Positions 6,044-62,766 of a stretch of DNA of 64,000 nucleotides are shown here, piece after piece. Under the pieces are notes generated by a model. That model was not told the DNA's origin. It made no database searches and saw only the letters and a program-made list of their open reading frames with translations. Source of the stretch: Planctomycetia bacterium (GTDB lineage Bacteria > Planctomycetota > UBA8108 > UBA1146); the NCBI GenBank assembly GCA_012269595.1, contig JAAXJX010000011.1, forward strand, positions 68,184 through 132,183, given 5' to 3'. The translations under genes and the position numbers were made by a program. Position 1 is the stretch's first letter. Every line of letters starts with the position of its first letter.

Positions 6044-6162
6044 GCTGCCCCCTGAATGAAACGGGTTTCCTGATCAAGCAGAGGCAGAATACCCGCTTGC
6101 AGTGAATAAATCACAGAAGAAGTAGTCAGGATTTCGGAAGTGTTACTGCTTGAGCCGACCGA

Positions 6163-11759: not shown

Positions 11760-11901
11760 GAAGAAAGTATAACTCCTGCGGTACCGAATGAGAATTCCGG
11801 CAAGTTCTATTTTTGGATTTGGGTGACGGTGAATCAGGTCCAGAATACCGGAATACCGGGGCCGGCGGGGCAAGGGCCGAGGATCATGTCAGGAGTTTCC
11901 C

Positions 11902-12732
11902 ATGACAGCAAAATTACACCTGATGACGAGAGTGGCCCCAGGAGAGAGCCCACAAAAATGGGTCCTTTTGCTGCACGGAATTCTGGGGGCCGGGGGGAAT
12001 TGGGCGGGATTTGCCCGAGATCTGGCCGAAGCCAGGCCTGATCTGGGGGTACTGGTCCCTGATCACAGACTGCATGGTCGATCCGAATCAGGAAGTCCGC
12101 CGGATCAACTGGATTCCTGTATCACCGATCTTGAAGAGATGATGGAGACCTTTGAGGGTGAGATTCATGCGGTGGTGGGGCACTCTTTCGGTTCCAAGAT
12201 TGGCATTCTGCTCGCTCTTCGACAGTCGTCTATTCGTCAGGCGTTTGTACTGGATGCGGACCCGGGACCCTTGTTGATGTCCGGGAAATCCAGAGCGGAT
12301 TTTCAGGTTTTGACGTTGATGGATGCACTTCGGGCAGCACCAGCGGCGTTTGCTTCTCGGGGAGAGTTCGTCGAATACATGGGTAGATTCGGTTTTCGAC
12401 CTGAGATTGCCGGTTGGGTCGGAAAAAACCTTCGCAGGGAGGGCGAAACACTGCACCTGCCACTCGACCTGGACCGTATTGAAAATCTCCTGGTGAGTCA
12501 TCATGAGTTTGACGCATGGCCGTGTCTTTCCCATGAAGGTGTCGAACGAATCGATTTCATCGTGGGGGAGCGATCGAAAGTAGTGGGAGAGTCGACCCGA
12601 TCCCGAATGAGATCTCTGTGCGACAGTGATCGGCTCCGGCATACACTGGAAGTGTTACCGAACGCCGGCCACTGGTTGCACGTGGATCAGCCAAAACTGC
12701 TTTTGCAGTCTCTTTTGAAACGACTGATCTAG
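11902..12732 (+). CDS. Alpha/beta-fold hydrolase
   Basis: HGxxG oxyanion region (LLLHGILGAGGNW) and nucleophile elbow GHSFG; 276 aa. Confidence 0.8.
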   Translation: MTAKLHLMTRVAPGESPQKWVLLLHGILGAGGNWAGFARDLAEARPDLGVLVPDHRLHGRSESGSPPDQLDSCITDLEEMMETFEGEIHAVVGHSFGSKIGILLALRQSSIRQAFVLDADPGPLLMSGKSRADFQVLTLMDALRAAPAAFASRGEFVEYMGRFGFRPEIAGWVGKNLRREGETLHLPLDLDRIENLLVSHHEFDAWPCLSHEGVERIDFIVGERSKVVGESTRSRMRSLCDSDRLRHTLEVLPNAGHWLHVDQPKLLLQSLLKRLI

Positions 12733-12745
12733 ATCTTCATTCTCC

Positions 12746-14089
12746 TCAGGGAGCGAAGTTCCCACTTCCGGAAGTTCTCGAGAGTTCTCCTCCCGGGCCA
12801 AACTTTTCCACCTGTTGTCGGAGCTGATCTCCGGAGGGCACTTTTTCTTCCGGGAAGGGGTGCTCTGGAGTGGACTCGACGTAAAGGCTGGTTGATGGGA
12901 AAGCGAACCCGACTTCCAATTCCTCTGCAAGACGAATCACTTCGAGAAGGAAGCGCTGTTTGACCTGAAGTTCTTCGGTGTAATCCGCAACGATCAAGCG
13001 AACGTTGACGAGGACGTCCAGGCTGGATGCTCCGAAATCCACGAGAGCCGCTCTGACCGTCTCTGTTTCAATCTTCTCCTGAGCCGCTGCGATCGCTTTG
13101 ACGCCTTCACAAAACGCTTCAATTTTGTCTGCGGGGGTTTCGTAGCGGAGACCAACCATGGTTTTGAATCTGCGGTAGTTTCGTTGGCCCATATTGTCGA
13201 TCACGCCGTTGACCAGCTCCGAGTTGGGCACACTGACCAGAGAACTCTCAAAAGTGCGGATCCGGGTGCAACGGAAACCGATCTCCTCGACGACCCCCTG
13301 GATCCCTCCGACCTTGACCCAATCGCCGAGTTGGAAGGGGCGATCGGTGAAAACCGTGATGGAACCAAAAAGATTGGCGAAGGTGTCCTTGGCAGCAAGA
13401 CTGACACCGATACCGAGCACACCGAGACCGGTGACAAGGGGCATCACGTCTTCTCCAGTACTCTGGATCAGGTATATCACTGCTCCAATGGTGACGAGAA
13501 ACTTCAGGCTTTTGCGAATCATGGGGGCCAGCTGGTCGTCCAGTTTGCTTTCAGAGAGACTGGCGGCCTCCTCCATGCGGGCACCGAGAAGATCAACCAG
13601 GCGATAGGCCAAAAGCAGACCGCCGATGGTTGCGAGTGCTCGCACGACCACGTCCATGATGGAAACACCAAATTGTGAAAATTGGAGTGCCGGAGCCAAC
13701 AGGTCGACGGTCAGTGCTGATGCAAACCATCCCAGTGATTTACCGACCGATGTAATCACGGCAGTCGTCTTTTCAGACTGGCCGACTCTTGCCAGGATGG
13801 AATTCAGAATGGAACCACCGATATGCGAGCTGATTTTTTGAATCAGCCAGGCGGCAATGGCGATCACTGCCAGAAGCAACCATTGCCACTGTTCCATAAA
13901 CAGGATGGTTGATCTCATCCCATCGGGGATTCGATCCTGAAGCCACTCAAACCCTGTTTCGGTCACCACCAAAGGGGCCGGGTCAGAGCCGGATTCCTGA
14001 GGCTGTGCCGAGATGGCCATTGGGCAAAGCAACAGAAGTGCCCCAAGGAAAAATGCCTGAAGACGCATCAGCAAACTCTCTTCCCTCAC
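12746..14089 (-). CDS. Mechanosensitive ion channel, MscS family
   Basis: A conserved MscS pore helix and beta domain (...GVLGIGVSLAAKDTFANLFGSITVFTDRPFQLGDWVKVGGIQGVVEEIGFRCTRIRT...), with N-terminal signal and TM segments. Confidence 0.85.
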   Translation of the reverse strand: MREESLLMRLQAFFLGALLLLCPMAISAQPQESGSDPAPLVVTETGFEWLQDRIPDGMRSTILFMEQWQWLLLAVIAIAAWLIQKISSHIGGSILNSILARVGQSEKTTAVITSVGKSLGWFASALTVDLLAPALQFSQFGVSIMDVVVRALATIGGLLLAYRLVDLLGARMEEAASLSESKLDDQLAPMIRKSLKFLVTIGAVIYLIQSTGEDVMPLVTGLGVLGIGVSLAAKDTFANLFGSITVFTDRPFQLGDWVKVGGIQGVVEEIGFRCTRIRTFESSLVSVPNSELVNGVIDNMGQRNYRRFKTMVGLRYETPADKIEAFCEGVKAIAAAQEKIETETVRAALVDFGASSLDVLVNVRLIVADYTEELQVKQRFLLEVIRLAEELEVGFAFPSTSLYVESTPEHPFPEEKVPSGDQLRQQVEKFGPGGELSRTSGSGNFAP

Positions 14090-40952: not shown

Positions 40953-41053
40953 CGAGTCGGGCTTTGCCTTGTCAGGATTCCTTGCCGAATCCGTAAATCA
41001 GGATAGATTAAGAGATCACACGTTTACTGTTTCTCAGTAAACGCGGTTCTGTC

Positions 41054-41406
41054 GGGGGCGAAACGGTTTCGACCGGACGATGGAACGTCGTGTGGCAGGT
41101 GGAGGTTGTCCGGAGGCCTCCTTAAACACCGGCAAAATTTTTGACTGCGAACAACAACTTCGCACTGGCTGCCTAATACTGGCGCCCCTTCCCCCGCGGC
41201 ATGTCCAGGGCCGCGGACGGAGGGCCATTTTTCTGGACTGGCCGAAGAAGACCCTGCCAGTGGTCTTTGAGGCGAGATCGAACTGGCGACCGTGGATCGG
41301 ATCCTGTCCGTTGGAGCTGACCTCGGTTTTAAAGAACGGACTATGCCTGTAGAAGCTCGGCGGGAAACGTTTCGGGACCCGGGTTCGACTCCCGGCGCCT
41401 CCACCA
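41054..41406 (+). ncRNA. ssrA: tmRNA (ssrA)
   Basis: The 5' end GGGGGCGAAACGGTTTCGAC pairs with the 3' end. The 3' T-arm-like GGGTTCGACTCCCGGCGCCTCCACCA ends in CCA. An internal tag-peptide frame ...GCG AAC AAC AAC TTC GCA CTG GCT GCC TAA gives (A)NNNFALAA. It lies immediately downstream of smpB. Confidence 0.85.
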
Positions 41407-41431
41407 TATTCAACACGCGTCTCTTGCGTGG

Positions 41432-41884
41432 TCAGGAAACGGCTCTCCTGTGCGCAAGCATGATCAGGGGAATCCCTATGGCTGTGGGGGTCAGCCAGGC
41501 AACCCACGGTGAGAACTGGTTGAAGAGGGGAAGTTCCATGGCATTCACGGCAAGGATGGCCGTGACCATGGCAATGTAGGACCCCAGCATTCCTGTGATA
41601 TGTTTTTTCAGCCAACCATTTGCTTTCCGCTTTGCGGCCAGAAAGCCGTAGAGGGCGAATGCATAACTGACGATGGCGATGAAAAACAGATACCAATGTT
41701 TATCCCAGGTCATGGTCGAGAAGATCATGCCGGTGGAGCAGGTCACCAGTACCAGCCAGTGGTATAGGTTGCCAGATCTTGTGTGCCAACCCCGGGATTT
41801 TTGGGTGAAACTCGCCAAAGGACCCAGAAGCAACCCCAGATTGGCGGCAGCCAGGTGGACGTAGAGCAGATAGTTTTCCCACAT
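41432..41884 (-). CDS. Hypothetical 4-TM membrane protein
   Basis: 150 aa with four hydrophobic helices and no recognisable motif; coding-like composition. Confidence 0.55.
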   Translation of the reverse strand: MWENYLLYVHLAAANLGLLLGPLASFTQKSRGWHTRSGNLYHWLVLVTCSTGMIFSTMTWDKHWYLFFIAIVSYAFALYGFLAAKRKANGWLKKHITGMLGSYIAMVTAILAVNAMELPLFNQFSPWVAWLTPTAIGIPLIMLAHRRAVS

Positions 41885-43975: not shown

Positions 43976-44163
43976 CAGGCAAATTGGGAAAAAAAGATCC
44001 CGTTGCCCTGATCGTGGTTGGAAATGGTTCAAAGTTCCTCCTCGAAAGCAAAAATGTCCGTGGGGTCCGTTCTGACAGGCTTCGATCGGATCGATTCGGT
44101 GCACCCGGGGATGACGCCTTCTTTATTGGTGTTATTCTATGATTGAGTAAGGGGGAGATTCCA

Positions 44164-45855
44164 GTGAGCAACGAATTCATCGGACAGAACGTGATCGTTT
44201 TGGTCCAAAAATCGTTTTTGACCCATCTGTTGATCTTCTGCATGGTTTTGACCGGTTGCACCGCTGAAAGACCCACAGTCCCCGTTGAGAAGGTCTCAGA
44301 GGCTCCTGAGCCTGCTCCAAAAGCGGAAAAAGCCGTTACTCCCTCCTCGAAGGAGGCTCTCCCCGAAGAGTCTCTCTCTTTCCTCATGGAACCCAAACTC
44401 AAACGGGCAGACTTGCCGAAGCCCACCGATGAACAGATCGATCAGGCTGAGAACCTGGTGATGGGAGCGTGTAGCCGATGTCACTCTCCTTTGCCTGCGG
44501 ATGCCCTTCCGAAGGCTGCCTGGGAAAAGGTGATCCTCTCGATGGCTGAGATGACAGGACCCTGGGATCAGCCACCGCCCACTCCCGAAGAGCTGGCCAT
44601 CGCACTTTACTGGTATGAAAAGGAAGCCCCGGAATCGTTGGAGGTGGTTCGCCATCCCGCCGAGGAGGATTTGCAGTTTGAAGTGATCGGTTTGACACCC
44701 AGAGGGCTGGAAAAGGAACGCATCCCCGCGGTTTCTGACATCATGTTGCTCAAGGGTGAAAGAGGCGTTCCACAGGGGATTTTGATTTCCGAGTTGAGAA
44801 GCCGACGGTTGATGGCGATCCCTTACGGATCCATCGACTCGGGGTCGCTTCGTCCTTTCATGGGGCCTGTGGATTTCAATTATCCCGCAGCGATCTCTCA
44901 CGGTGACTATAACAATGATCGAAAGCTCGATATTTTTGTCGCCAGCCTCGGGGGCATGAATCCCACCGATGAAGAAAAAGGCGGAGTCTCCTACATCCTT
45001 TCAGAGGATGGCGGCTGGAGAACCGTATCGGTTCCCGTGAATCTGGGAAGAGCCTGCGACATCGATGTGGCTGATCTTGATCTGGACGGGGACACGGACA
45101 TGGTCGTTTGTGCGTTCGGTTTTCGTGGTCCCGGAAAGCTGCTGTGGTTGAAAAACATTCAGGATCAGTTCGTGGTCAAAACCCTCGATGAACGTGACGG
45201 ATTTGTCGCAGCGATCCTCGACGACATCGACGACGATGAAGACGAAGACATTATCGCCCTGCTCTCTCAGGAGCACGAAGTTCTGATTCAGTTCACCAAC
45301 GATGGCGAAGGCTCTTTTACCATGAAGGAACTTTTGCGCCTTCCGCATGCGGCATGGGGATCTTCCGATCTGATGCGGGTCGATATTGATCGGGATGGGG
45401 ATCGGGACCTGCTGTTGGTCAATGGCGACACACTCGATGACCATACTCCCAAACCTGTTCATGGAGTTCGTTGGCTGGAGCGAGTGGGGAAAGAGTTTGT
45501 GGGTTTCCATGAAATCCTGTTGTTGCCCGGTTGCGAGCGCGCCGCTGTCGGCGATCTCGATGGTGACGGCGATTACGATGTGGTCGGTGCTGCATTCATG
45601 CCGCAGATTCCGTCGGAAGAGTGGGGGCAATGGGACTCATTGGTCTGGGCGGAAAATCTCGGAGATTCCAAAGCGTGGGATGTCAAAACCCTGGAGGTGG
45701 GCAATCCGGTTCACTCTGCCGTTCATCTCGATGATCTCGATCGAGATGGGAATATGGATATTGTGACCGGAAACTACGTCTGGATACGGGGCAAAGGCGA
45801 AGATCAGATTCGCCGTGATTATTTGACCGTATGGAAGGGCCAACCACGGCCCTGA
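44164..45855 (+). CDS. FG-GAP repeat lipoprotein with an N-terminal CXXCH (Planctomycete cytochrome-C-like) segment
   Basis: GTG start with an AAGGGGGAG RBS. Lipobox LTGC. CSRCH motif. Multiple FG-GAP calcium-binding loops (DVADLDLDGDTDMVV, VDIDRDGDRDLLLV, GDLDGDGDYDVV, DLDRDGNMDIV). Confidence 0.8.
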   Translation: MSNEFIGQNVIVLVQKSFLTHLLIFCMVLTGCTAERPTVPVEKVSEAPEPAPKAEKAVTPSSKEALPEESLSFLMEPKLKRADLPKPTDEQIDQAENLVMGACSRCHSPLPADALPKAAWEKVILSMAEMTGPWDQPPPTPEELAIALYWYEKEAPESLEVVRHPAEEDLQFEVIGLTPRGLEKERIPAVSDIMLLKGERGVPQGILISELRSRRLMAIPYGSIDSGSLRPFMGPVDFNYPAAISHGDYNNDRKLDIFVASLGGMNPTDEEKGGVSYILSEDGGWRTVSVPVNLGRACDIDVADLDLDGDTDMVVCAFGFRGPGKLLWLKNIQDQFVVKTLDERDGFVAAILDDIDDDEDEDIIALLSQEHEVLIQFTNDGEGSFTMKELLRLPHAAWGSSDLMRVDIDRDGDRDLLLVNGDTLDDHTPKPVHGVRWLERVGKEFVGFHEILLLPGCERAAVGDLDGDGDYDVVGAAFMPQIPSEEWGQWDSLVWAENLGDSKAWDVKTLEVGNPVHSAVHLDDLDRDGNMDIVTGNYVWIRGKGEDQIRRDYLTVWKGQPRP

Positions 45856-51420: not shown

Positions 51421-52782
51421 CTAGTTGCAGTAAGGGTGCTCAAGACAGTCGGTCGGCTCCTGATCTGCGGCGATTCCGCAATCCGGGAACGGTGCGGAAG
51501 GTGCCGCTCCGTCAAGGAACTGGTAACTGATCACGAAGACCGGGTCTGCTGTGTCGTAGAGACCGTCGCCATTGGCGTCGTTGGCGGCCAGGCAGTTGTA
51601 GGTCGGTCCACCCAGGAAGAGATCTGAGAGCATCCAGATCGCATCGGCGACGTCATTGCGACCGTCCGCATTGGCGTCACTGCGCAGGAATGGAGTGACC
51701 GAAACCGCTTCAAAAGTGAGCGAGGCATCGTTGAGCTGGGCAGCCAGTGAGTTTCCACCGACCACCATGACGTTGCTGACAGGAGGGGATCCGAGTCCAC
51801 CGGACCATGTCAGAGCGGAAGATGCTCCGTCCTCGTCTCCTGCCAGAGCTCCGGCAACCGTGGAGTAATCGGCGATGACGGCGGTCTCACCTGCAGTGCT
51901 GAAGGTGATCGTCTCGGCACCAATGAAGGAGTAAACGACTCCACCGGTCCAACCGTCGGTGTAGATGCTGAGTTCAGCGAATCCGGGGCCATTGCCTCCG
52001 TCGAGAGCCGCCACGGATCCGGTGAAGGAAACGGAGGTGGCTTCGAGAAGGGCCGGGTCATGGGCCAGGCCCATGGAGAAGCCCTGAGTGGCATTCGGGA
52101 ACGGAGTTCCCAGTGCACTGTTGTCAATCTCGGCAATGGTGACGTCGATGCTGAAGGAGGCATTGCCGTCGTCCGGCGAGTAATTGACGGTTCTGTCGGA
52201 AGCGGTGTAGGAGTAGCCCGGATCGGGGATGTCGATCACGGTGATGGATCCACTGTTTGTTGAAGGAGTATTGGAAGATCCGCCAACAACGACCACCGTG
52301 CTGACCGGCGGTGATCCAAGGGTTGAGCAGTAATCGAGGGGGAAATCTCCCGGAGAAGCTCCGCCGTCGATATCGTAGCTGGTGCTGGCCATAAGGAATC
52401 CACTGGTTCCACCAGCAAGAGTTGCGCAGCCGGTGAAGCAGATGACGACTCCCTGAGTCCAACCATCCGAGTAAAGGCTGCCCTCAAGGAAGTCCGCTGG
52501 ACTGCCATTTTTGACGGTGGAGGTACTGTTGGCCGCACCATCTCCAGTGCCGATGGCTGTAGCGGTTACTTCGGGTCCATTACAAACACCCAGAGACCAG
52601 CCCTGGATATCGCCTGCCCCGGCGTCCAAGGTGAAATCGACCGTGACTGATGAACCTGCGGCTCCGGAAGCGGATCCCCCGTTCATCGTCTGTGATTCGG
52701 CAGTGCCGAAGGGGAACAAAGTCATGACCGCGAAGATCATGGCATGTGAAATAAAACGTGACATCGAACGAATTCCTCCCAT
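51421..52782 (-). CDS. Secreted protein with two copies of a ~120-aa domain, a C-terminal dockerin pair and a Cys-rich tail
   Basis: Signal peptide MSRFISHAMIFAVMTLFPFGTAESQ. Repeated domain (...GFSMGLAHDPALLE...LGSPPVSNVMVV...). Dockerin repeats DANADGRNDVADAIWMLSDLF and ANDANGDGLYDTADPVFVISYQF, ending ...PFPDCGIAADQEPTDCLEHPYCN. Confidence 0.75.
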   Translation of the reverse strand: MGGIRSMSRFISHAMIFAVMTLFPFGTAESQTMNGGSASGAAGSSVTVDFTLDAGAGDIQGWSLGVCNGPEVTATAIGTGDGAANSTSTVKNGSPADFLEGSLYSDGWTQGVVICFTGCATLAGGTSGFLMASTSYDIDGGASPGDFPLDYCSTLGSPPVSTVVVVGGSSNTPSTNSGSITVIDIPDPGYSYTASDRTVNYSPDDGNASFSIDVTIAEIDNSALGTPFPNATQGFSMGLAHDPALLEATSVSFTGSVAALDGGNGPGFAELSIYTDGWTGGVVYSFIGAETITFSTAGETAVIADYSTVAGALAGDEDGASSALTWSGGLGSPPVSNVMVVGGNSLAAQLNDASLTFEAVSVTPFLRSDANADGRNDVADAIWMLSDLFLGGPTYNCLAANDANGDGLYDTADPVFVISYQFLDGAAPSAPFPDCGIAADQEPTDCLEHPYCN

Positions 52783-52935: not shown

Positions 52936-53640
52936 CTAAAGTTCTTTAATGGTGATATTACGGAACTTTAGGGGCGTTCCATGGCTTTGAAGTTCTATGG
53001 GACCGCGGATGGGGAGCGGCTCGTTCCTCCTCCAATAGTTTTCCAGGGGAGTGTCTTTTACAACTAACCTGTCATTCAAGTATACGGTGACGCGATCCGC
53101 CTTCATCAGGATGCGGAAGTGGTTCCAATCCCCAAGGGGTGAATCAGCCACTTCCAGAGGGTTCGCCCCCCCTTTTTGATTGTTGAAGAGTCCTCCGGAG
53201 CCGACTGGGTTTTTCAGGTGATCCCAGATCTGGACCTGCGGGCAACCCCTCAAGTAGACCCCGCTGTCACCTCCCGGGGTGATCTGCCACTCCATTTGCA
53301 ACTCAAAATCTCCATATTCCTTTTGAGTCACCAGATGGCTGCCTTTGCCGTCGAAGCACAGGACTCCGTCCTCCACTTTCCAGTGCCGGCGCATCTTTTC
53401 ATTCGCTTCGTGTTGGAGCTGTGTTTTCTCTGCGGCGCCCATGTTCTGTAACTGATAGGGGTTTGCAACCAGCCCCTGCCATCCATTCAGGGAGACTCCG
53501 TCGAAGAGAGAGATCTCCCGGGAGTGGGTTTCAGGGCCAATTGAGGCGATTCCGGAGCAGCCTGCGATCAGTGCAGGCAGGATCAGTGCTGGAAGGATGA
53601 AACACAGAGGGGTCCTCAGGGTGAGTAATCGGGTCTTCAT
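52936..53640 (-). CDS. DUF1080 (3-keto-disaccharide hydrolase / LamG-like) lipoprotein
   Basis: Lipobox LIAGCSG. DUF1080 pattern (FDGVSLNGWQG ... VEDGVL ... YGDFELQMEWQITPGGDSGVYLR ... GPIELQSHG). Confidence 0.85.
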   Translation of the reverse strand: MKTRLLTLRTPLCFILPALILPALIAGCSGIASIGPETHSREISLFDGVSLNGWQGLVANPYQLQNMGAAEKTQLQHEANEKMRRHWKVEDGVLCFDGKGSHLVTQKEYGDFELQMEWQITPGGDSGVYLRGCPQVQIWDHLKNPVGSGGLFNNQKGGANPLEVADSPLGDWNHFRILMKADRVTVYLNDRLVVKDTPLENYWRRNEPLPIRGPIELQSHGTPLKFRNITIKEL

Positions 53641-53845
53641 CGGTCATTTCCTTCCGTTCATGGGTTCAGGGGTCGGTCATAGCCTCGGAAGATCACAGAC
53701 CTTACGATCTTTTCCCTGTTGATCCGCCATGGAGTCGAAGCTGGATGGGGTTCTGGCAGGCCAAATCGGGCCTGGTTCGCATTTTTCAGTCGAGACCCGT
53801 CGGAGTCTGCCTCGGTTGACGACCTCTGTCACAGGAAGGGTAACC

Positions 53846-55198
53846 GTGACTCAGCCCCTCGATAAAGTTCTGAATTTCAAATTGTCGCTGATGATGTTTC
53901 TCCAGTATGCGATCTGGGGGGCATGGCTGCCGCTGTTGTACCCCTATCTCAAGAATCACATGAAGTTTGCCGACGGAGACATTGGCAACATGTTCGCGGT
54001 GGGTGCCGTCGGTGCGATTCTGGCTCCCTTTATCGCCGGTCAGATCGCGGATCGATTCTTTCGGACGGAGCATTTCCTGGCACTCAGCCATCTGGCCGGT
54101 GCTGCGGTGGTTTGGCAGTTGGCTTCCATCGAGCCCGGCGAGGGGGCTGTGAACCAATTCCTGATCTTCAGCCTGATCTACAGTTTGATCTATTCACCAA
54201 CTCTGTCGTTGACGAATTCCCTGAGTTTTCATCATCTTCCCGATCGGGATCGCGACTTTGGTCGTGTTCGGGTATGGGGCACGGTGGGGTGGATCGCAGT
54301 TGGAATCATCATCGGCCAACATCTTCTCAAAAGTTATGCTGGGGGAGATTTTGCCAATGCGGCGAGTCCCGAGGTTTATGCGGGCTACGCTGATGCGTTC
54401 AGACTGTCAGCCATCATCGGTGCAGGAATGGGAATCTTCTGTTTTCTGCTTCCTGCCACGCCGCCCGGAGGCAAAGCGGAGGACAACGCAACCTTTGCCG
54501 CTCTGGGTGAGGTCAAGCGCCAGCCTTTGCTGACCCTTTTTGCTCTTGCGGTGCCGATCTCCTGTATCCATCAGTTCTACTTTGTTCACACATCCGGATT
54601 CCTGGGCACACTGCAAACGCAGTTGAATGACGCCGATCTCGCGAACTCCATCAATACCCTGTTTGGTATCGGTGGCGGAGGCCTGATGACGGTGGGTCAA
54701 ATGAGTGAGATTCTGGTTCTCGCGATGATTCCCCTGCTGGCCAGCAAGTTTTCGCGGAAACAACTGCTGCTCATGGGATTGATCGCCTATGCCTTGCGCA
54801 TGGCCATCTTCGCTTATGCCCCGGGTTGGCTCGGTGAATCTGCCATGGGGCTGGTACTAGTGGGAGTGGCTCTGCACGGATTCTGTTTCGGCTGCTTCAT
54901 CTTTGTCGCCTTCATGATCGTCGATGAAGAGTGCCGGATGGACATCCGTGCCAGCGCACAGAGTCTCTTTAATCTGGTGATTGTCGGAATCGGCATCATC
55001 GTGGGCAGCAAGATCGCCACAAGCGTCTCTGTTTGGGCGAATGACACCAGTGTGATCACTGAGGGGACGCCCTGGCATTTGCCTTATGAGCGTCTCTTCT
55101 CGATTCCGATGTGGGCGAGTGTGATCTGTATTGGAATCCTGCTCTTGTGCTACCCCTCTGGATCCAACTCCGACAACGAAGAAAAAACGGCCTCATGA
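53846..55198 (+). CDS. MFS transporter, nucleoside:H+ symporter (NHS) family-like
   Basis: 12-TM protein whose N-terminus ([23 protein letters not shown]) resembles NupG/XapB-type transporters. Start set at the GTG with an AGGAAGGG RBS; the ORF track starts at 53729. Confidence 0.75.
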
Positions 55199-56163
55199 AC
55201 GACTCCCTTGAATCCATCGATCGCAGGAAATTTCTGTCCCTTGCCGGTGCCGGTTTGGCCGCTGGATTATCCGGTTGTGGCGGATTGAGTGTGGGAGGCT
55301 ATCAGTTGATTCCTGGACCTCAACCCCCGCAGACATTCGACATCTCTCTGGCGGAGTGGTCTTTGCACCGAACTCTTCGCAAGGGCGAGATGACGAACCT
55401 CGATTTTCCCCGGGTCACCCGGGAGAAGTTTGGCCTCGATGCGGTGGAGTACGTCAACAGTTTCTTCAAGGACAAGGCCCGAGATGAAGTCTACCTCAAG
55501 GATCTTCGACAGCGCTGTGAAGACCATGGAGTCAAAAGCCTCCTGATCATGTGCGATGGCGAAGGAAATTTGGGAGACCCGGACGACGCGGCTCGCTCAC
55601 GGGCCATCGAAAATCATCATCGCTGGATCGATGCCGCGAAGTTTCTCGGTTGTCACTCCATCCGCGTCAATGCCGCGAGCTCCGGCAGTTACGAGGAGCA
55701 GATGCGACTTGCAGCGGACGGTCTGTCCCGGTTGACCGAATACGGTGCTTCCCAGGGACTGAATGTCATCGTTGAAAATCATGGCGGACTTTCTTCGAAT
55801 GGGGCATGGCTCGCTGGAGTCATGAAGATGGTGAACCATCCCCGATGTGGAACGCTGCCCGATTTCGGCAATTTCAACCTCGGCAACGGAAAGACCTACG
55901 ACCGTTATCAGGGGATTGAGGAATTGATGCCCTTTGCCAAAGCGGTCAGTGCAAAGAGTCACGAGTTTGATGAGAATGGAAACGAAGTTCACACGGATTA
56001 TCGAAGAATGATGAGACTCGTCCGTGATGCCGGATACCAGGGCTACGTCGGCATTGAATTTGAAGGCCCCGGTGATGAAGCCGAAGGCATTCTTGCGACC
56101 AAGAGACTTCTCGAAAGGGAACGCGATCGCTGGTGGCAAGATGATGAAATCAAGAAATCCTGA
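55195..56163 (+). CDS. Sugar phosphate isomerase/epimerase (xylose-isomerase-like TIM barrel) with a Tat signal
   Basis: Twin-arginine signal [22 protein letters not shown] and the TIM-barrel family fold. ATGA overlap with the transporter stop. Confidence 0.85.
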
Positions 56164-56188
56164 ATTGAAAAGCAGAGAGGAACCTGCA

Positions 56189-57529
56189 ATGACACAGCAA
56201 AATCAAAATGCGGCACCCCAAAACGGCCGCAGGGACTTTCTCAAGGGTGCAGCTCTTGCTGCAGGAGCGATGGCCGTCACCGGTTGTGTTGCTCCGGGAG
56301 CGGCGCGGATCGGCGCGGTACCGGGAACCATCGGAACCGCCCGCACTCGAACTCCAGTGGGAGAAGACGGTCTGGTCAATATCGCCATTCTGGGCACCGG
56401 CGGCATGGGTGGGGGTCACATCGATTCCTTCATGCGCTTTGCCAAGAAGGGTGAGGAGAAGGTTCAGATCGTTGCGGTCTGTGACGTCAATACGGTTCGC
56501 CGCAAGGTGGCCGAAGACAAGGTCAACAACAGTCAGGGTGGAGAGGTGGCGGTCTACACCGATTACCGCGAGATGCTCGAGAGAGATGACATTCACGGAG
56601 TGGTCATCGCCTCACCGGAGCACTGGCATGGCAAGCAGGCAGAGGACTGCCTTCTTGCGGGTAAAGACGTTTACCTCGAAAAACCGATGACACTGAACCT
56701 TCCCGACGCCCTGCGCCTGCGGGAAGTGGTTCGGAAGAATCCGGATGTCCTGATTCAGGTGGGCACCCAAAAGATCATGTTGCCCAAATACAAGGCGGCT
56801 CAAGAACTGATGGGACGCGGGGACATCGGCAAGATGACCTTCAGCCAGACCTCATACTGTCGCAACTCCAAGAATGGAGAGTGGCTCTACTACGGCATCG
56901 ATCCCAAGGTACAACCGGGTGAAACTCTCGATTGGGATATGTGGTGCGGCCCTCTGGGCAAGAGGGAGTGGGATCCGGCGTTCTATGCACGCTGGCGCCG
57001 TTACCGGGATGCCTCGACGGGCATCATCGGAGACTTGCTGGTCCATGAGGTGACTCCGTTGGTCATGGCTCTCGACCAGGGCTGGCCGACACGCGTGGTC
57101 GCGACCGGCGGTCACTATGTCGACAAGGCGATGGAAAACCACGACCAGGTCAACCTGCAGGTACAGTTTGAAAAAGGACATACCCTGATCGTTGCAGGAT
57201 CGACCTGTAACGAAAATGGTCTGGAGACGATGGTTCGTGGCCATATGGGAACCGTCTACCTCAATGGCGGAAACTGCAAAATGGTTCCGCAGCGGATCTT
57301 TGCCGACGATGTTGACCCTGAAGAGGTCGTCTGTGAAAACATCGGCAATGATCAGGATGCCCTGCGCAAGAATTGGCTCGATTGCATCCGTACCCGTCGC
57401 CAGCCCGACTCCAATGTCGAGTTGGGAACCAAAGTGATGGTGATCGTTGATCTGGCTTCCCGTTCGATGTGGGAAGGCAAGGCCTTCGAGTTTGACCCGG
57501 CCACGATGACGGCCTCCGCCATCGGCTAG
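56189..57529 (+). CDS. Gfo/Idh/MocA-family oxidoreductase with a Tat signal (periplasmic)
   Basis: Tat motif NGRRDFLKGAALAAGAMA, a Rossmann-like IAILGTGGMGGGH and an EKP motif (VYLEKPMT). ATG with a GAGAGGAA RBS. Confidence 0.85.
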   Translation: MTQQNQNAAPQNGRRDFLKGAALAAGAMAVTGCVAPGAARIGAVPGTIGTARTRTPVGEDGLVNIAILGTGGMGGGHIDSFMRFAKKGEEKVQIVAVCDVNTVRRKVAEDKVNNSQGGEVAVYTDYREMLERDDIHGVVIASPEHWHGKQAEDCLLAGKDVYLEKPMTLNLPDALRLREVVRKNPDVLIQVGTQKIMLPKYKAAQELMGRGDIGKMTFSQTSYCRNSKNGEWLYYGIDPKVQPGETLDWDMWCGPLGKREWDPAFYARWRRYRDASTGIIGDLLVHEVTPLVMALDQGWPTRVVATGGHYVDKAMENHDQVNLQVQFEKGHTLIVAGSTCNENGLETMVRGHMGTVYLNGGNCKMVPQRIFADDVDPEEVVCENIGNDQDALRKNWLDCIRTRRQPDSNVELGTKVMVIVDLASRSMWEGKAFEFDPATMTASAIG

Positions 57530-57532
57530 GGG

Positions 57533-58459
57533 GTGGACTTGTTGGAGCGCGGCGCCCTCGCGGCGATGGGGACACGATTTGAAATCATCGTCGCGGGGGA
57601 GCCCGGCTCCCACGCGAGGGCTTCCATCGAGGCAGCCCTCGCTGAGATTGAGCACTGTCACAAGCTCTGGAGTCCCTTCAGCGGGGACAGCATGTTGGCT
57701 CGTCTCCACGATCCCATGCGTGAAGTGGTCCCCATCGATGGGTTAACGCTGGAACTGCTGTCTCTCTGCGAAAGACTGGAACGGGAGACCGGTGGAGCCT
57801 TCTCGGCGACGGTGGGTTCTGTTCTGGCTTCCCGTGATCCCCGCAGGGAGTGCCATGAGGGGGCAGGGGTTCCTGAGGGCCGATCCGCATATGAAATCCA
57901 TGACCAGCCTCCCTGCGTACGAATCCTCCATCCCGATGTCCGTTGGGATTTCGGAGCCATCGCCAAAGGTTTTGCTCTGGATCTCGCCGTGGAGGTCCTG
58001 CGGGAGTCGGGAGTGGAAAACGCATTTTTGCATGGGGGATCGAGCAGTATCACCGTATTGGGCAGTGCTCCGGGATTGACCGGTTGGGACGTCCAGCTTC
58101 CTCATGGAGAAGTGGTTTCGCTGCAGGACGGGCAGAGCCTCGGTGTCAGCAGTGATGCCGGAAGCTACGAGGGAGATCATTTGATCGACCCTTTCGGCGG
58201 AGAATGGATCGAGAGTCAGTCCATGGGCTGTTGGGTCCTTGGGAAAAGTGGTGCGGAAGTGGATGCATGGGCCACCGCGCTCCTGGTTTCCCGACTCCGT
58301 TCCACAACAGCAACGAATCCCGGTAATGAGGGGGAAGACTGGGGCTTCTTCGAGCACCCCCGTTCAGAGAAGCCTGTCCATGATGAGACTGCTGAAGTGC
58401 AAGTCTCTTCATTGGTTGCTGAATCCCCTCGTGATTGCGGGTTCAGGAAAGAAATTTGA
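57533..58459 (+). CDS. apbE: FAD:protein FMN transferase (ApbE family)
   Basis: ApbE hallmarks AAMGTRFEI (MGT motif) and GAIAKGFALD. Confidence 0.85.
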   Translation: MDLLERGALAAMGTRFEIIVAGEPGSHARASIEAALAEIEHCHKLWSPFSGDSMLARLHDPMREVVPIDGLTLELLSLCERLERETGGAFSATVGSVLASRDPRRECHEGAGVPEGRSAYEIHDQPPCVRILHPDVRWDFGAIAKGFALDLAVEVLRESGVENAFLHGGSSSITVLGSAPGLTGWDVQLPHGEVVSLQDGQSLGVSSDAGSYEGDHLIDPFGGEWIESQSMGCWVLGKSGAEVDAWATALLVSRLRSTTATNPGNEGEDWGFFEHPRSEKPVHDETAEVQVSSLVAESPRDCGFRKEI

Positions 58460-58505
58460 CCGACGAGAGAAACCTATCGGGGAAAGGATCCCCACTGGAG
58501 GAAAC

Positions 58506-59735
58506 ATGGCGACTGATCGCAGAGAGTTCATGATTCAAAGTGCCGGTGCTTTGGCGGGGGTAGCCCTGCTTCCGGGTTTGGAAGGCTGGGCCCGATCCAT
58601 CGAGGATGGTTATCCGGTGGGAATCATCGGTACCGGTCGCCAAGGGCGGGCCATCGCTGCTGAATTACAAAAGATCGGTGCAAAGATCGTGGCGATCTGT
58701 GACAACGATGCTCCCCGTCTTCGCAGCGGCAGTCGCCGGGTCAAGGAAGCGAAGACCTATTCGGATGCCGCCGAAATGCTGGCCACGGAAAAAGGAATGG
58801 AAGCGGTCTTCGTGGCCACTCCCACCCATTTGCATCGGGAAGTGGTGGAGGCAGCCATCGCTGCAGGGAAACACGTGTACTGTGAGGCTCCCCTTGCCCA
58901 TACCATCGAAGACGCAAAGGCCATCGCAATGGCTGCTCGAGGCAGCTCGAAAGTGTTTCAGGCTGGACTGCTGGCCCGTTCGAACCCGGTGTACTCTCTG
59001 GCACGTTCCTTCTATCGCACCGAGGCGTTTCTCAAACTGGTCTCCATGAGAGGGCAAAACTCGCGCAAGGACAGTTGGCGTCAGGCGGCATCCACGGCCG
59101 AGCGTCAGGCTCGTCTCGATTGGCGTTTGAATGAAGCCACTTCAACCGGATTGCCGGGTGAGTTGGGGACCCACCAGTTCGATGTTTTCCACTGGTTCAC
59201 CGGCAAGTATCCGGTGCGTGTGCAGGGACGTGGGGGAGTTCTGGTTTGGGAGGATGGTCGCAAGGTTGCCGACACCGTCAATCTCGTTCTCGAGATGGAA
59301 GGCGGAGAATGTATCGAATATCAGGCGACTCTCGGCAACTCCTATGGCGGGCGCTATGAAGTGCTCCATGGAGTCAACTCCGCGTTCCGATTGGCCTGGT
59401 CCCATGGCTGGATGTTCAAGGAAGCGGATGCGGCAACTCAGGGATGGGAAGTCTATGCCAATCGTCAAAGATTCTTCAATGACGAAGGCATCACCCTGAT
59501 TGCTGACGCAACCAAGTTGGCAAGCCAGAATAAATTGAAGGATGGTGTGGGACTTCCCCATGATTCTCTCTACTACGGAATCATGGATTTCCTCACCAGT
59601 TGTCAGGAAGAGAAGTTCCCTACGACGGGAGCAGGTGAGGGGTACCGGGCTACCGTGGTGGGCATTGCTGCTCACAGGGCAGTGGTGGAGGGGACGACCG
59701 TGGAAATCTCCCCTGACGACCTGAAGGAGGCCTGA
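58506..59735 (+). CDS. Gfo/Idh/MocA-family oxidoreductase with a Tat signal
   Basis: Tat motif TDRREFMIQSAGALAGVA, a Rossmann-like VGIIGTGRQGRA and a family-characteristic CEAP segment (EKP-type position). ATG with a GGAGG RBS. Confidence 0.85.
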   Translation: MATDRREFMIQSAGALAGVALLPGLEGWARSIEDGYPVGIIGTGRQGRAIAAELQKIGAKIVAICDNDAPRLRSGSRRVKEAKTYSDAAEMLATEKGMEAVFVATPTHLHREVVEAAIAAGKHVYCEAPLAHTIEDAKAIAMAARGSSKVFQAGLLARSNPVYSLARSFYRTEAFLKLVSMRGQNSRKDSWRQAASTAERQARLDWRLNEATSTGLPGELGTHQFDVFHWFTGKYPVRVQGRGGVLVWEDGRKVADTVNLVLEMEGGECIEYQATLGNSYGGRYEVLHGVNSAFRLAWSHGWMFKEADAATQGWEVYANRQRFFNDEGITLIADATKLASQNKLKDGVGLPHDSLYYGIMDFLTSCQEEKFPTTGAGEGYRATVVGIAAHRAVVEGTTVEISPDDLKEA

Positions 59736-59736
59736 T

Positions 59737-60510
59737 TTGAAAATCGGAATCGGAGAGGGGCTTCACTCTCTTCCATTGGGAGCGCGACTGGGTTTGACGG
59801 GATTGTGCATCGTTCTTTTGGGCGGGCTCTTTGCCAGCTTCCAGCATATGAAGAATCACTATGCCGATCGCGATGCCAAACCCGAGTTTTCCACGGACGA
59901 TGTCGTCAGTGCCTATCATGGTCTCGACAGTCCTGCCCCACTGAAAGTGGCCATCGAGAGTGGGCATCCTGAAACCCTTCCGCAAGAGCAACGTGACATC
60001 CTTCTCAGCTGGTTGACGGGGGATCGTGTACTCATGAAGTATGACAGTGAAGACTGGCCTCAGGTTCCGGCAGATATTCTGGATGAATATTGCCTCTCCT
60101 GTCATACGCGTGATCTGGCAGAGCAACAGGGGATTCCTGCCCTCGAATATTTCGACGATATCAAGCCACTGGTGATTTCACGCAAGGTGGAGAGAACTCC
60201 GGATGAAATCCTTGCAGCATCGACCCACGCTCACGCCCTGAGCATGTCGATTCAGGGGATCGTGGTGCTGTTTCTGGCTTTGCTGACTGCGTGGCCGACA
60301 AAGGGGATCAGTCTTCTTTGTGCATTCATGGGCCTGGGTCTGGTCGGTGACATCGGGGGTTGGTGGCTCGCCCGATACAGTGCATCATTTGTCACCATGA
60401 TCATGATATGCGGAGCGGCATACAGCGGCGTACAGACCCTGTTGCTCGGCGGGATCATCTGGGACACCTGGCTCGGTCGGGGAAGCTCAAAAGAGCAAGA
60501 CCAGAGCTGA
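59737..60510 (+). CDS. Membrane protein with a single CXXCH motif (putative c-type cytochrome subunit)
   Basis: An N-terminal TM helix, a periplasmic segment containing CLSCH, and two or three C-terminal TM helices. Sits between two Tat-Gfo/Idh/MocA genes, 1 nt after the previous stop. Confidence 0.55.
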   Translation: MKIGIGEGLHSLPLGARLGLTGLCIVLLGGLFASFQHMKNHYADRDAKPEFSTDDVVSAYHGLDSPAPLKVAIESGHPETLPQEQRDILLSWLTGDRVLMKYDSEDWPQVPADILDEYCLSCHTRDLAEQQGIPALEYFDDIKPLVISRKVERTPDEILAASTHAHALSMSIQGIVVLFLALLTAWPTKGISLLCAFMGLGLVGDIGGWWLARYSASFVTMIMICGAAYSGVQTLLLGGIIWDTWLGRGSSKEQDQS

Positions 60511-60542
60511 ACAGATCAAAAACGCTCTTCGAAGGAGGAACG

Positions 60543-61820
60543 ATGACTTCAAAATCCTCAGGAACTCACCGCAGGGATTTTCTCAAGGGTGCGGCAGCCA
60601 CTGCGGCGCTGGCTGGATTGGCACCGGGTCTTTCCATGGGAATGGGCCCTGTTTCCGGATCGGATGAGATTCGTGTCGGATTGATCGGTTGTGGTGGTCG
60701 CGGTTCCGGTGCTGCTGACAACTGTGTGAAAGCAGCAGACGGAGTCAAAATCGTCGCCATGGCGGATCTGTTCCGCGACCGACTGGAGTCGAGTCGCAGT
60801 CATTTGATGGGACTTGGAGACAGTTTTGACGTACCTGAAGAGCGCTGTTTTGTCGGCTTCGATGCCTATCAGCAGCTGCTCGCCTGTGATGTCGATCTGG
60901 TCATCCTTGCGACTCCTCCGGGGTTCCGTCCGATGCACTTTGAAGCAGCCATCGAGGCGGGGAAGCACGTCTTTATGGAAAAACCGGTAGCCACCGATGC
61001 ACCGGGAATCCGCAAGGTTCTGGCAGCAGCCCGAAAGGCCAAGGAAAAGAATCTGGCCGTGGTCGCCGGAACCCAGAGACGCCACCAAAAGGGATACATC
61101 GAAACGATGGAGAGAATCCACGATGGAGCCATCGGTGAGTTGGTCGGCGCCCAGGTCTATTGGAATCAGGGCGGTCTGTGGGTCGTTCCGCAGAACAAGG
61201 AAATGTCGGACATGGAGTGGCAGTGTCGAAACTGGCTCTATTTCACCTGGGCCAGTGGCGACCATATCGTCGAACAGCACATTCACAATATTGATGTCAT
61301 GAATTGGGCTTTCGGCGGTCCTCCGAAGAAAGCGTTGGCGATGGGAGGAAGGCAGGTCCGTACCGGAGAACAGTATGGAAACATCTTCGATCACTTCGCC
61401 GTCGAGTTTGAATTTGAAGGCGGTGTTCGTGCTCTCAGCGAATGTCGCCAGATCGACAACTGCTGGAATCGGGTTTCGGAGAAGATCATCGGAACTGAGG
61501 GAACCGCCAACCCTTCAGGAAGTATCTCCAGCAGCAAGAATGGTGACTGGCGTTCCAGCGGCGGAGGAAAGAATGCCTACGTCCAGGAGCACACGGATCT
61601 GATCGAGAGTATCCGTCGTAATGAAGTTCTGAATGAGGGCGAGACGGTCGCGATGAGCACCCTGACCGCCATCATGGGCCGCATGAGTGCCTACACCGGC
61701 AAGGAAGTGACCCTCGAGTTCGCTCTTCAGTCGCAGGAAAGCCTGTTGCCCGAAAAATGGGAGTTTGGACCTCTGGCCACACCTCCCATCGCAGTTCCCG
61801 GAAAAACCCCGTTGATCTGA
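60543..61820 (+). CDS. Gfo/Idh/MocA-family oxidoreductase with a Tat signal
   Basis: Tat motif THRRDFLKGAAATAALAGLA, a Rossmann-like VGLIGCGGRGSGA and an EKP motif (VFMEKPVA). ATG with a GGAGGAA RBS. Confidence 0.85.
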   Translation: MTSKSSGTHRRDFLKGAAATAALAGLAPGLSMGMGPVSGSDEIRVGLIGCGGRGSGAADNCVKAADGVKIVAMADLFRDRLESSRSHLMGLGDSFDVPEERCFVGFDAYQQLLACDVDLVILATPPGFRPMHFEAAIEAGKHVFMEKPVATDAPGIRKVLAAARKAKEKNLAVVAGTQRRHQKGYIETMERIHDGAIGELVGAQVYWNQGGLWVVPQNKEMSDMEWQCRNWLYFTWASGDHIVEQHIHNIDVMNWAFGGPPKKALAMGGRQVRTGEQYGNIFDHFAVEFEFEGGVRALSECRQIDNCWNRVSEKIIGTEGTANPSGSISSSKNGDWRSSGGGKNAYVQEHTDLIESIRRNEVLNEGETVAMSTLTAIMGRMSAYTGKEVTLEFALQSQESLLPEKWEFGPLATPPIAVPGKTPLI

Positions 61821-61836
61821 TACTGAAGGAGACTCC

Positions 61837-62766
61837 ATGGATCGTCGCACCTTTATGACTCTGACCGCACTTGGATTGCTGGGAGGGTGTGCCAACACCA
61901 TGACCGGAAGTCGAAATCCCTGGGCTGGAAATTACCCGTCGCTGGTGGGAAACAACCGATCCAAAATTCTGAAGTGTCTCAAGATCGGTATGGTCAATGT
62001 CGAGGGAACCCTCCATGAAAAGTTCCAGCTTCTGAAAGAAGTCGGTTTTGACGGAGTGGAGATGGATTCTCCTTCCGGAGTCGATTGGGACGAAGTGGTT
62101 CAGGCTCGTGATGATACCGGGTTGGTGATTCCGGGAGTGGTTTGCTCAACTCATTGGGGAAAGCCGCTCTCCTCTCCCGACCCGGCGGTTCGCAAGTCCG
62201 GTATCGAGGGAATGGAAACGGCACTCAGAGACTGTCGAAAGGTGGGTGGCTGGACCGTTCTTCTGGTTCCCGGTGTGTGTAACAAGGAAGTTTCTTATGA
62301 GCAGGCCTGGGAGAGATCGACGGAGGCGGTCAAGGAGTTGATTCCTCTCGCCGAGGAATTGAAAGTTCAGATTGCTTTCGAAAATGTCTGGAACAACTTT
62401 ATCACCAAAGCGGATGAGGCCGTTCGCTATGTAGACCAGTTTGAGAGTCCGACGGTGGGTTGGTATTTCGATACGGGCAACATTGTTCGTTACGAAGAAC
62501 CGGTCGACTGGGTCCGTAAACTGAATTCCAGAATCCTCAAACTCGATATCAAGGACTACTCTCGCAAACTGATGGAAGCGGAGGGGGTCTGGGCCGGTTT
62601 CCGATGCAAGATCGGGGATCCGGACTCGTCGGTCGGTTGGGCTGCCGTCATGGCTGAAATCCGCAAACTCGGTTTCTGTGGCTGGGGTTCGGCGGAAGTC
62701 TCCGGTGGAGGCAAGGAACGCCTGGCAGACATCTCGAAAAGAATGGACGACGTTTTCAACCGCTGA
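61837..62766 (+). CDS. Sugar phosphate isomerase/epimerase (xylose-isomerase-like TIM barrel), Tat/lipoprotein signal
   Basis: MDRRTFMTLTALGLLGGC signal and the TIM-barrel family fold. Confidence 0.85.
   Translation: MDRRTFMTLTALGLLGGCANTMTGSRNPWAGNYPSLVGNNRSKILKCLKIGMVNVEGTLHEKFQLLKEVGFDGVEMDSPSGVDWDEVVQARDDTGLVIPGVVCSTHWGKPLSSPDPAVRKSGIEGMETALRDCRKVGGWTVLLVPGVCNKEVSYEQAWERSTEAVKELIPLAEELKVQIAFENVWNNFITKADEAVRYVDQFESPTVGWYFDTGNIVRYEEPVDWVRKLNSRILKLDIKDYSRKLMEAEGVWAGFRCKIGDPDSSVGWAAVMAEIRKLGFCGWGSAEVSGGGKERLADISKRMDDVFNR

Follow-up and report, generated by a model that had tools for sequence, protein, structure and literature searches.

Planctomycetota and related phyla encode very many Gfo/Idh/MocA-type "dehydrogenases" of unknown function that are exported by the twin-arginine translocation (Tat) system, and a locus of a Planctomycetia bacterium (contig JAAXJX010000011.1) raises the question of where such enzymes could deliver their electrons. 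Within the 64,000-nucleotide (nt) stretch of this contig that we analysed (the window; all coordinates are positions in it), a gene for an ApbE-family flavin transferase and a gene for a small CxxCH-bearing membrane protein lie among genes for exported dehydrogenases. An earlier note on this DNA had proposed an electron route from periplasm to membrane, running from dehydrogenase through a flavinylated or haem carrier to the quinone pool. We find that these genes belong to a conserved, colinear cassette of four genes at positions 56189 to 60510. In our preferred reading, to which we assign a probability of about 0.5, the cassette encodes a membrane-linked periplasmic sugar dehydrogenase module of four parts that would pass electrons through a haem-c anchor to the respiratory chain. 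Its genes and diagnostic segments are as follows.

56189 to 57529, forward strand: GFO_A, a Tat-exported Gfo/Idh/MocA oxidoreductase of 446 amino acids (aa) (Pfam GFO_IDH_MocA with C, C2 and C3 domains).
57533 to 58459, forward strand: leaderless ApbE-family protein of 308 aa (Pfam PF02424, 108 bits).
58506 to 59735, forward strand: GFO_B, a Tat-type Gfo/Idh/MocA paralogue of 409 aa (Pfam GFO_IDH_MocA with C and C3 domains).
59391 to 59558, forward strand: ultra-conserved block of GFO_B, residues 296-351, defined by near-invariance among orthologues.
59737 to 60510, forward strand: TM, a four-helix membrane protein of 257 aa (PF27139, Aq_1264_TM, from the Pfam assignment of its homologues).
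60091 to 60105, forward strand: CLSCH, the putative haem-c attachment site of the membrane protein, residues 119-123 (Cys119, Cys122, His123).
60223 to 60234, forward strand: THAH, at the predicted periplasmic end of helix 2 (residues 163-166).
60349 to 60375, forward strand: DIGGWWLAR, at the predicted periplasmic end of helix 3 (residues 205-213).

The genes singled out earlier, at 57533 to 60510, do belong together, but the unit is larger and begins at 56189 with GFO_A. The earlier description of a polytopic membrane protein with a single CLSCH motif, encoded between two Gfo/Idh/MocA genes (58506 to 59735 and 60543 to 61820), holds, as does its 1-nt intergenic spacing: the stop codon of GFO_B ends at 59735 and the TTG start of the membrane-protein gene, preceded by an AAGGAGG Shine-Dalgarno sequence, lies at 59737. 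At the other tight junction, the ApbE open reading frame (ORF) opens 1 nt after the stop codon of GFO_A, in the same frame. A read-through fusion of the two proteins (57527 to 57535, where the shared frame is interrupted by TAG and one further codon) was considered and rejected because the frame relation is not conserved; the same-frame arrangement is seen in many loci, and many loci overlap in another frame.

The cassette is retained well beyond the window. A genome scan with one genome per species and a DIGGWWLAR-type motif as the retrieval pattern returned 72 loci, 71 of which are labelled Planctomycetota or unclassified; the sole exception, L019, lies on the same contig as L001 and has a public record reading "Bacillota bacterium", and this contig is probably mis-binned or mislabelled. 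For scoring, profiles built from five cassettes were run on all ORFs, and the denominator was set at the 59 species-level loci that have a close homologue of TM and 4.3 kb or more of upstream sequence. The complete colinear order GFO_A-ApbE-GFO_B-TM is found in 53 of these 59 loci, and the co-occurrence of Tat-Gfo/Idh/MocA genes, apbE and the membrane-protein gene to which the earlier note had pointed is thus that of a conserved unit. L061 is a 54th cassette locus, with a split ApbE, and the same gene order recurs in four further genomes with TM homologues that are 40 to 45% identical. In those four genomes the flanks of the cassette share nothing, consisting of cell-wall genes, a sulfatase, an acyl-CoA dehydrogenase, and others. 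GFO_A and ApbE are always adjacent (median of 43 nt from the GFO_A stop codon to the ApbE core, 56 loci), and so are GFO_B and TM (median of 364 nt from the GFO_B stop codon to the CxxCH motif of TM, meaning that the TM gene begins directly after GFO_B). The two pairs are separable, with a 2.2-kb insert between them in L055 and a GFO_B-TM pair without GFO_A-ApbE in L080 and a lone pair of this kind in L029. Taken together, this conservation makes it nearly certain that the four genes form a functional module.

All three GFO genes at the locus, the two of the cassette and a third directly downstream, match PF01408, PF02894 and PF22725 (a Rossmann domain plus the C-terminal alpha/beta domain). 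GFO_A carries RRDF (the twin-arginine motif, residues 14-17), GTGGMG (69-74), EKP (164-166) and GDLLVH (281-286). The EKP motif is present in 57 of 57 orthologues, leaving the lysine intact, and the D-x-x-x-H motif is kept. The best NCBIfam match is the BT_2158_fam glycoside 3-dehydrogenase (NF058561) at 102.7 bits against an equivalog cutoff of 750, so that GFO_A is not a BT2158 equivalog; its best solved relatives are PDB entries 8TDF and 8TDH. These features identify GFO_A as the probable catalytic subunit, and the chemistry of the module is probably oxidation of a sugar at the C3 position of a glycoside. Both GFO_A (23.8 bits) and the third GFO (25.1 bits) score above the cutoff of 16.7 bits for the Tat-signal model TIGR01409. 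The earlier note had taken both genes flanking TM to be Tat substrates; this stands for the third GFO, whereas no Tat model scored GFO_B. The GFO_B N terminus nevertheless reads DRREF followed by a hydrophobic stretch, with the twin arginine conserved in at least 95% of 62 orthologues, and GFO_B is likely a Tat substrate as well.

GFO_B is 23% identical to GFO_A and has EAP (127-129) in place of EKP, the lysine position being occupied by A, T, S or V in 62 of 62 orthologues. It keeps GTGRQG (42-47) and Asp66, the acidic residue after strand 2; among orthologues the first two glycines of GxGxxG are conserved in 62/62, the third in 61/62 and the aspartate in 62/62. An AlphaFold2 model shows the typical family fold (TM-score of about 0.7 to 2GLX and 6A3I). 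A block of about 55 residues (296-351, consensus LAWxHGWMFKEADAxTQGWEVYANRQ..GITLIADATxLAxQxKLxxGVGLP) is nearly invariant across the 62 orthologues and 37 database homologues, and residues 300-307, 311-335 and 342-348 are the sole segments of the model with a predicted local distance difference test (pLDDT) score below 50 besides the N-terminal signal region. Being both highly conserved and unplaceable in a monomer model, the block is most simply an interface, probably a docking arm. In crystal structures of the related enzyme AL3, an arm extends into the active site of the partner monomer (bioRxiv 10.1101/2024.03.25.586180). By this analogy, and with its altered motif, GFO_B may be a noncatalytic adaptor, forming a pair with GFO_A and docking on TM.

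The membrane protein had no match in our local Pfam and NCBIfam libraries, the PF27139 model being absent from that copy of Pfam; PF27139 is precomputed on a 98%-identical protein (P0001) and on 43 of 46 other homologues. Its four hydrophobic segments correspond to helices 14-42, 156-182, 188-211 and 217-246 of an AlphaFold2 model (pLDDT, 88), in which a helical domain of about 115 residues between helices 1 and 2 holds the CxxCH motif. This motif is invariant in 30 of 30 database homologues and in 70 of 70 genome orthologues, the conservation on which the earlier note had made its proposal depend. It is present in 104 of 107 full-length representatives (97%) of a wider family of 646 clusters at 50% identity (E ≤ 0.001) and is kept in a distant Pirellulaceae sister clade with 23 to 28% identity. 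His164 and His166 of THAH are conserved in 70/70 orthologues, and [ST]HxH is kept in the distant clade and, by strict pattern, in 80 of the 107 representatives. Asp205 and Trp209 are invariant among the 30 database homologues, and D-x-G-x-W-W-L-A-R at the end of helix 3 is shared by the cassette clade and the distant clade. His77, in turn, is invariant in the cassette clade only, which makes His164 or His166 the likelier distal haem ligand; THAH is a candidate for this role or for part of a quinone or metal site. The conserved His, Asp and Trp residues lie close together at the predicted periplasmic ends of helices 1 to 3, and the enrichment of Arg and Lys in the helix 2-3 loop and C terminus of the consensus fits a topology, judged by charge distribution, with the N terminus inside and the domain outside. 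Members of the sister clade are annotated at source as "mono/diheme cytochrome c family protein" and "cytochrome c553". The membrane protein, whose family is uncharacterised, is therefore probably a c-type cytochrome with a four-helix anchor and a single haem predicted from its motif, and we are fairly confident that it is the haem-c membrane partner of GFO_B. A literature search for "aq_1264" found nothing.

Other genomic settings of this family were also recorded. The PF27139 genes of the Pirellulaceae sister clade are monocistronic. In L081 and L082 (at about 6001 to 6870), the PF27139 gene is convergent with a DUF4198 gene, with no redox partner evident; repeated pairs of TP_methylase and SBP_bac_10/N_methyl genes follow, and a PadR regulator.

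The assignment of the gene at 57533 to 58459 to ApbE was correct: its PF02424 score compares with a cutoff of 25.6 bits and covers profile positions 1-248 of 266, and PDB chains of ApbE and Ftp match at E values of 5e-7 to 4e-4. Against the E. coli-type equivalog NF007774 it falls below the cutoff (34.7 versus 498 bits). The probable catalytic residues are Ser206, His216 and Asp244, together with Thr248. Among 57 orthologues, the first is Ser in 55 and Thr in 2, the second is His in all 57, the third is Asp in 48 and Glu in 9, and the last is Thr in 53. The Vibrio cholerae ApbE triad consists of Ser241, His257 and Asp285 (PMC12052999); the His-to-Asp spacing of 28 residues is the same in both proteins, the residue correspondence being one of motif position, with no structural superposition. 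The ApbE core (AMGTRFE) begins at residue 11, with only 10 residues before it. In 21 of 54 loci there is room for no more than 14 residues ahead of the core, the longer stop-to-stop extensions in the remaining loci contain no hydrophobic stretch, and a leader was found in no locus. The earlier note had assumed that this ApbE acts on extracytoplasmic proteins, as canonical ApbE does; with no room for a signal peptide, the cassette copy must instead act in the cytoplasm. L079, a 13-kb locus from a 5.5-Mb contig, has a second ApbE gene about 4 kb downstream of the cassette (12032 to 13069, forward strand) whose product has a hydrophobic leader and canonical motifs, which marks the cassette copy as a dedicated cytoplasmic paralogue. 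Further ApbE genes occur a few kilobases from the cassette in L030 (12193 to 13266, reverse strand) and L032 (14286 to 14759, reverse strand). The second ApbE genes of all three loci adjoin other Gfo/Idh/MocA or xylose-isomerase-like genes, and these sugar loci may have more than one link to ApbE.

How could these parts work together? GFO_A would be exported by Tat in a folded state with tightly bound NAD(P) and would oxidise a sugar, probably at C3 of a glycoside, while GFO_B, through its arm, would dock the dehydrogenase onto the predicted periplasmic domain of TM. One c-type haem would sit at CxxCH, just above the cluster of His, Asp and Trp residues on the outer side of the helix bundle, and electrons would pass from this cluster to the quinone pool or respiratory chain. 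Bound NAD(P)H, a two-electron hydride donor, cannot directly reduce a one-electron haem, and a flavin is the usual converter between the two. Flavin mononucleotide (FMN) could serve as this two-electron to one-electron converter between NAD(P)H and haem, giving a path that starts from the glycoside and runs through NAD(P) in GFO_A, FMN, and haem c on the membrane protein, which GFO_B holds in place, to quinone. Tat substrates fold and acquire cofactors ahead of export, and a transferase that modifies a Tat substrate must therefore be cytoplasmic. We propose that the leaderless ApbE adds FMN to a Tat substrate prior to export, GFO_A being the likeliest target, and modification at this stage would explain why a leaderless ApbE is translationally coupled to GFO_A. 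The direction from sugar to quinone is favoured because it is thermodynamically downhill.

For the combination of an ApbE, a membrane protein and exported GFOs in one conserved unit, an electron route from dehydrogenase to membrane, as first proposed in the earlier note, remains the most economical reading, although the step through a flavinylated carrier lacks its motif. We place transfer of electrons from the module to the membrane at even odds. Flavinylation before export at a noncanonical site is a tentative addition, with the odds somewhat against it, and the scheme in full (a Tat-exported, NAD(P)-bound GFO heterodimer, loaded with FMN before export and reducing quinone via the PF27139 cytochrome) is rather unlikely to be right in every part.

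A number of observations weigh against the module as we picture it. The flavin acceptor motif Dxx[ST]GA[ST], on which the earlier note had counted, occurs in no window ORF of at least 150 aa and is not conserved in 81 related loci; one sporadic match lies in a variable part of the L049 GFO_B, and the others are in antisense frames. Domain scans of the proteins found no FMN_bind, DUF2271 or DUF3570. The best conserved look-alikes, A-G-S-T in GFO_A (Thr339, 57/57) and I-A-D-A-T in GFO_B (Thr336, 62/62), are weak. The former aligns, in a pairwise alignment, with a core strand of the family fold in GFO_B, a position that makes Thr339 less attractive as an acceptor, and the AlphaFold2 model of GFO_B does not place the conserved block and hence does not place Thr336 relative to the nucleotide pocket. 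A candidate in the membrane protein, Tyr60 in a loosely flavinylation-like D-x-x-[G/S]-A-Y-H-G, was rejected as an acceptor because 4 orthologues and the entire sister clade have Phe at this position and because the spacing is one residue short. On the side of the haem, cytochrome c Pfam models match the TM protein below threshold only (E of 0.07 to 0.2). The TM gene stands alone in 5 of the 59 loci, and a search of the neighbourhoods of these lone genes for another redox partner found no consistent neighbour. Genes of the Pirellulaceae sister clade are never beside GFO or ApbE genes and have no consistent redox neighbour either. Moreover, haem attachment, topology, complex formation, the direction of electron flow, and flavinylation with its target are steps that we infer. 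Some tolerance in the flavin step is documented: in motif mutagenesis, Asp to Ala had only a small effect, about 50% of flavinylation remained after Gly to Ala or Ala to Val, and cytoplasmic ApbEs are known (PMC12052999). A noncanonical flavinylation site is therefore possible. The flavin step is not one that sequence can confirm, and its acceptor protein is a candidate only.

The alternative that survives best is that no electrons leave at all. The earlier note had argued that NAD(P)H is not regenerated outside the cytoplasm and that turnover of exported enzymes would need an electron outlet; however, a redox-neutral cycle that accounts for the turnover of related enzymes has been published, in which NAD is recycled by reducing the 3-keto-sugar product (bioRxiv 10.1101/2024.03.25.586180; PMC8121099), and the argument from turnover therefore does not hold in general. 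On this account the locus would carry out only redox-neutral glycoside cleavage, as in BT2156-BT2159/AL1-AL4, by oxidation, elimination, hydration and reduction by the same NADH, and ApbE and the membrane protein would serve otherwise or repair over-reduced enzyme. The genes around the cassette bear on this possibility. Nine genes at 52936 to 62766 lie on the forward strand apart from the DUF1080 gene, and those outside the cassette, all accessory, are as follows.

52936 to 53640, reverse strand: DUF1080/3-keto-disaccharide hydrolase (Pfam PF06439, 149 bits).
53729 to 55198, forward strand: major facilitator superfamily (MFS) transporter of the nucleoside:H+ symporter type (Pfam Nuc_H_symport, 262 bits).
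55195 to 56163, forward strand: xylose-isomerase-like TIM barrel (Pfam AP_endonuc_2, 104 bits), with an RRKF twin-arginine leader as read from the translation.
60543 to 61820, forward strand: third Tat-exported Gfo/Idh/MocA oxidoreductase, with EKP kept (recognised by TIGR01409, score as above).
61837 to 62766, forward strand: xylose-isomerase-like TIM barrel (Pfam AP_endonuc_2, 129 bits).

L079 repeats this context, with an MFS transporter, DUF1080, the cassette, a xylose-isomerase-like gene and a GFO; a gene of the DUF1080 family lies directly upstream of GFO_A there, and one of the MFS (Nuc_H_symport) family lies upstream of the cassette. This repetition links the cassette to 3-keto-glycoside metabolism. 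The DUF1080 protein, the two xylose-isomerase-like proteins and the MFS transporter near the cassette in the window and in L079 speak for the redox-neutral cycle, as do the resemblance of GFO_A to BT2158/AL3-type enzymes, its closest relatives, and the published recycling mechanism. The context is variable, however. An AP_endonuc_2 gene adjoins the cassette in L001 and L079, and a xylose-isomerase-like gene follows the third GFO in the window and L001. The third GFO itself is directly downstream of the cassette only in the marine clade nearest the window (e.g., L007-L025, L030, L032 and L068) and is absent from that position in most Phycisphaerae loci. The four-gene cassette stays intact in genomes where DUF1080 and AP_endonuc_2 genes do not adjoin it, its gene spacing is tight, and GFO_B lacks the catalytic lysine and so is not simply the second oxidoreductase of the Bacteroides pathway. 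We consider a purely redox-neutral role unlikely.

Less probable still is a reading in which the ligand of CxxCH, THxH and Asp is a metal ion and not haem. The membrane protein would then supply or sense a metal (e.g., Mn or Co for partner lyases) or assemble GFO_B, and ApbE would be a helper that binds or hydrolyses flavin adenine dinucleotide (FAD) rather than a transferase. Such a role would agree with the lack of a significant cytochrome c family match, with a PDB profile search in which the membrane-protein alignment found no structural relative (nothing below E = 0.1), with several invariant His and Asp residues close to the membrane surface, with the missing flavin acceptor motif, and with the metal dependence of related pathway enzymes (bioRxiv 10.1101/2024.03.25.586180). 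It is countered by the CxxCH motif itself, the standard site of haem-c attachment in exported domains, which is kept in nearly the whole family, by source annotations that in some cases read cytochrome c, by the conserved transferase residues of ApbE, and by a multi-CxxCH protein matching the Cytochrome_C554 Pfam model in the window organism. On balance we regard a metal site as distinctly unlikely.

The cassette ApbE might also hitch-hike out of the cell with a Tat substrate, as is known for other proteins, and flavinylate a periplasmic protein encoded elsewhere, e.g., NqrB/C or RnfD/G. The failure to find an acceptor motif in the cassette would be accounted for in this way; yet the separate, leader-bearing ApbE on the same contig in L079 is available for such targets, and ApbE is fixed beside GFO_A in every cassette found, which together leave export of the cassette ApbE very improbable. 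Least probable is reverse flow, with electrons from quinol passing via the haem protein, and perhaps a flavin, to reduce NAD(P)+ in a periplasmic keto-sugar or carbonyl reductase: the gene association would be identical, sequence gives no direction, and related enzymes reduce 3-keto-sugars (bioRxiv 10.1101/2024.03.25.586180), but electron transfer from quinol to NAD(P)+ would be strongly uphill by established redox potentials, and no energy-coupling component was found in the cassette.

Elsewhere in the window, a protein of 980 aa with TPR repeats, five CxxCH motifs and a match to Cytochrome_C554 is encoded at 8931 to 11873 on the reverse strand, which suggests that the organism makes c-type cytochromes; an FG-GAP/ASPIC protein is encoded next to it at 7117 to 8931 (reverse strand). 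Single motifs of this type are also present in an FG-GAP protein with CSRCH (44143 to 45855, forward strand) and in a 220-aa protein without a Pfam match, where CRECH lies inside a His-rich stretch (41034 to 41696, reverse strand). A 453-aa, secreted-looking protein without a Pfam match (51421 to 52782, reverse strand) ends in two D-x-N-x-D-G-type repeats (DANADGRNDVADAIWML ... NDANGDGLYDTADPVF) that are dockerin-like in appearance.

If the membrane-linked sugar dehydrogenase module exists as proposed, Planctomycetota would have a direct path for electrons from sugars oxidised outside the cytoplasm into the respiratory chain. The cassette would give the uncharacterised PF27139 family its first functional context and would point to ApbE activity on Tat substrates before export, at a noncanonical site. 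Surveys that demand a signal peptide on ApbE or on an FMN-binding protein would miss such cassettes (PMC8238504).

Full-text searches for ApbE together with Gfo/Idh/MocA returned nothing relevant, where the slash in the family name may defeat phrase matching, and we compared the cassette with known systems that share some of its parts. The Bacteroides pathway BT2156-BT2159/AL1-AL4 likewise relies on Tat-exported Gfo/Idh/MocA enzymes with tightly bound NAD (PMC8121099; bioRxiv 10.1101/2024.03.25.586180), and it supplies the best NCBIfam and PDB matches of GFO_A as well as counterparts of the neighbouring DUF1080 and xylose-isomerase-like genes. It differs in having neither ApbE nor a membrane cytochrome and in recycling NAD by reduction of 3-ketoglucose, whereas the second Gfo-like protein of the cassette has lost its catalytic lysine. 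The authors of the more recent study also allow for re-oxidation by "specialized proteins, such as cytochromes" (bioRxiv 10.1101/2024.03.25.586180). The glucose-fructose oxidoreductase of Zymomonas mobilis is a Tat-exported Gfo/Idh/MocA enzyme as well, with nondissociable NADP (PMC8121099), and is a structural neighbour of the GFO_B model; unlike the proposed module, it is a homo-oligomer that is redox-balanced by two sugar substrates, without a cytochrome or ApbE partner.

ApbE-dependent extracytosolic systems, surveyed by Meheust et al. 2021 (PMC8238504), likewise combine ApbE with exported redox enzymes and a membrane electron-transfer protein. That survey retained a cluster only if its ApbE or its FMN-binding protein had a signal peptide (PMC8238504) and would therefore exclude this cassette, which differs from the surveyed systems in having no FMN_bind, DUF2271 or DUF3570 acceptor and in a membrane protein without a local Pfam match, including to the families behind their NapH-, MsrQ-, PepSY- and DsbD-like anchors. 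Closer in cellular location are the cytoplasmic ApbE of Klebsiella pneumoniae and the ApbE domain of trypanosomatid fumarate reductase (PMC12052999), which, as here, are leaderless and have a dedicated neighbouring or fused partner. The proteins that they modify remain in the cytoplasm or glycosome and have the canonical D-x-x-[S/T]-G-A-[S/T] motif, whereas the neighbours of the cassette ApbE are Tat-exported and lack it.

The flavoprotein-cytochrome c sugar dehydrogenases of acetic acid bacteria feed a c-type cytochrome and the respiratory chain. These enzymes and LacABC have an FAD-containing (GMC-type) catalytic subunit and a soluble or multi-haem cytochrome subunit; in contrast, the cassette offers an NAD(P)-type Rossmann catalytic subunit and a four-helix, single-CxxCH membrane cytochrome candidate. 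LacABC and ThuAB are cytochrome-c-dependent periplasmic 3-ketoglycoside dehydrogenases that resemble the proposed module in oxidising sugars in the periplasm and delivering electrons to a c-type cytochrome and the respiratory chain (PMC8121099). The cassette thus probably represents a known principle, a periplasmic dehydrogenase wired to the membrane by a cytochrome, assembled from an unusual set of parts.

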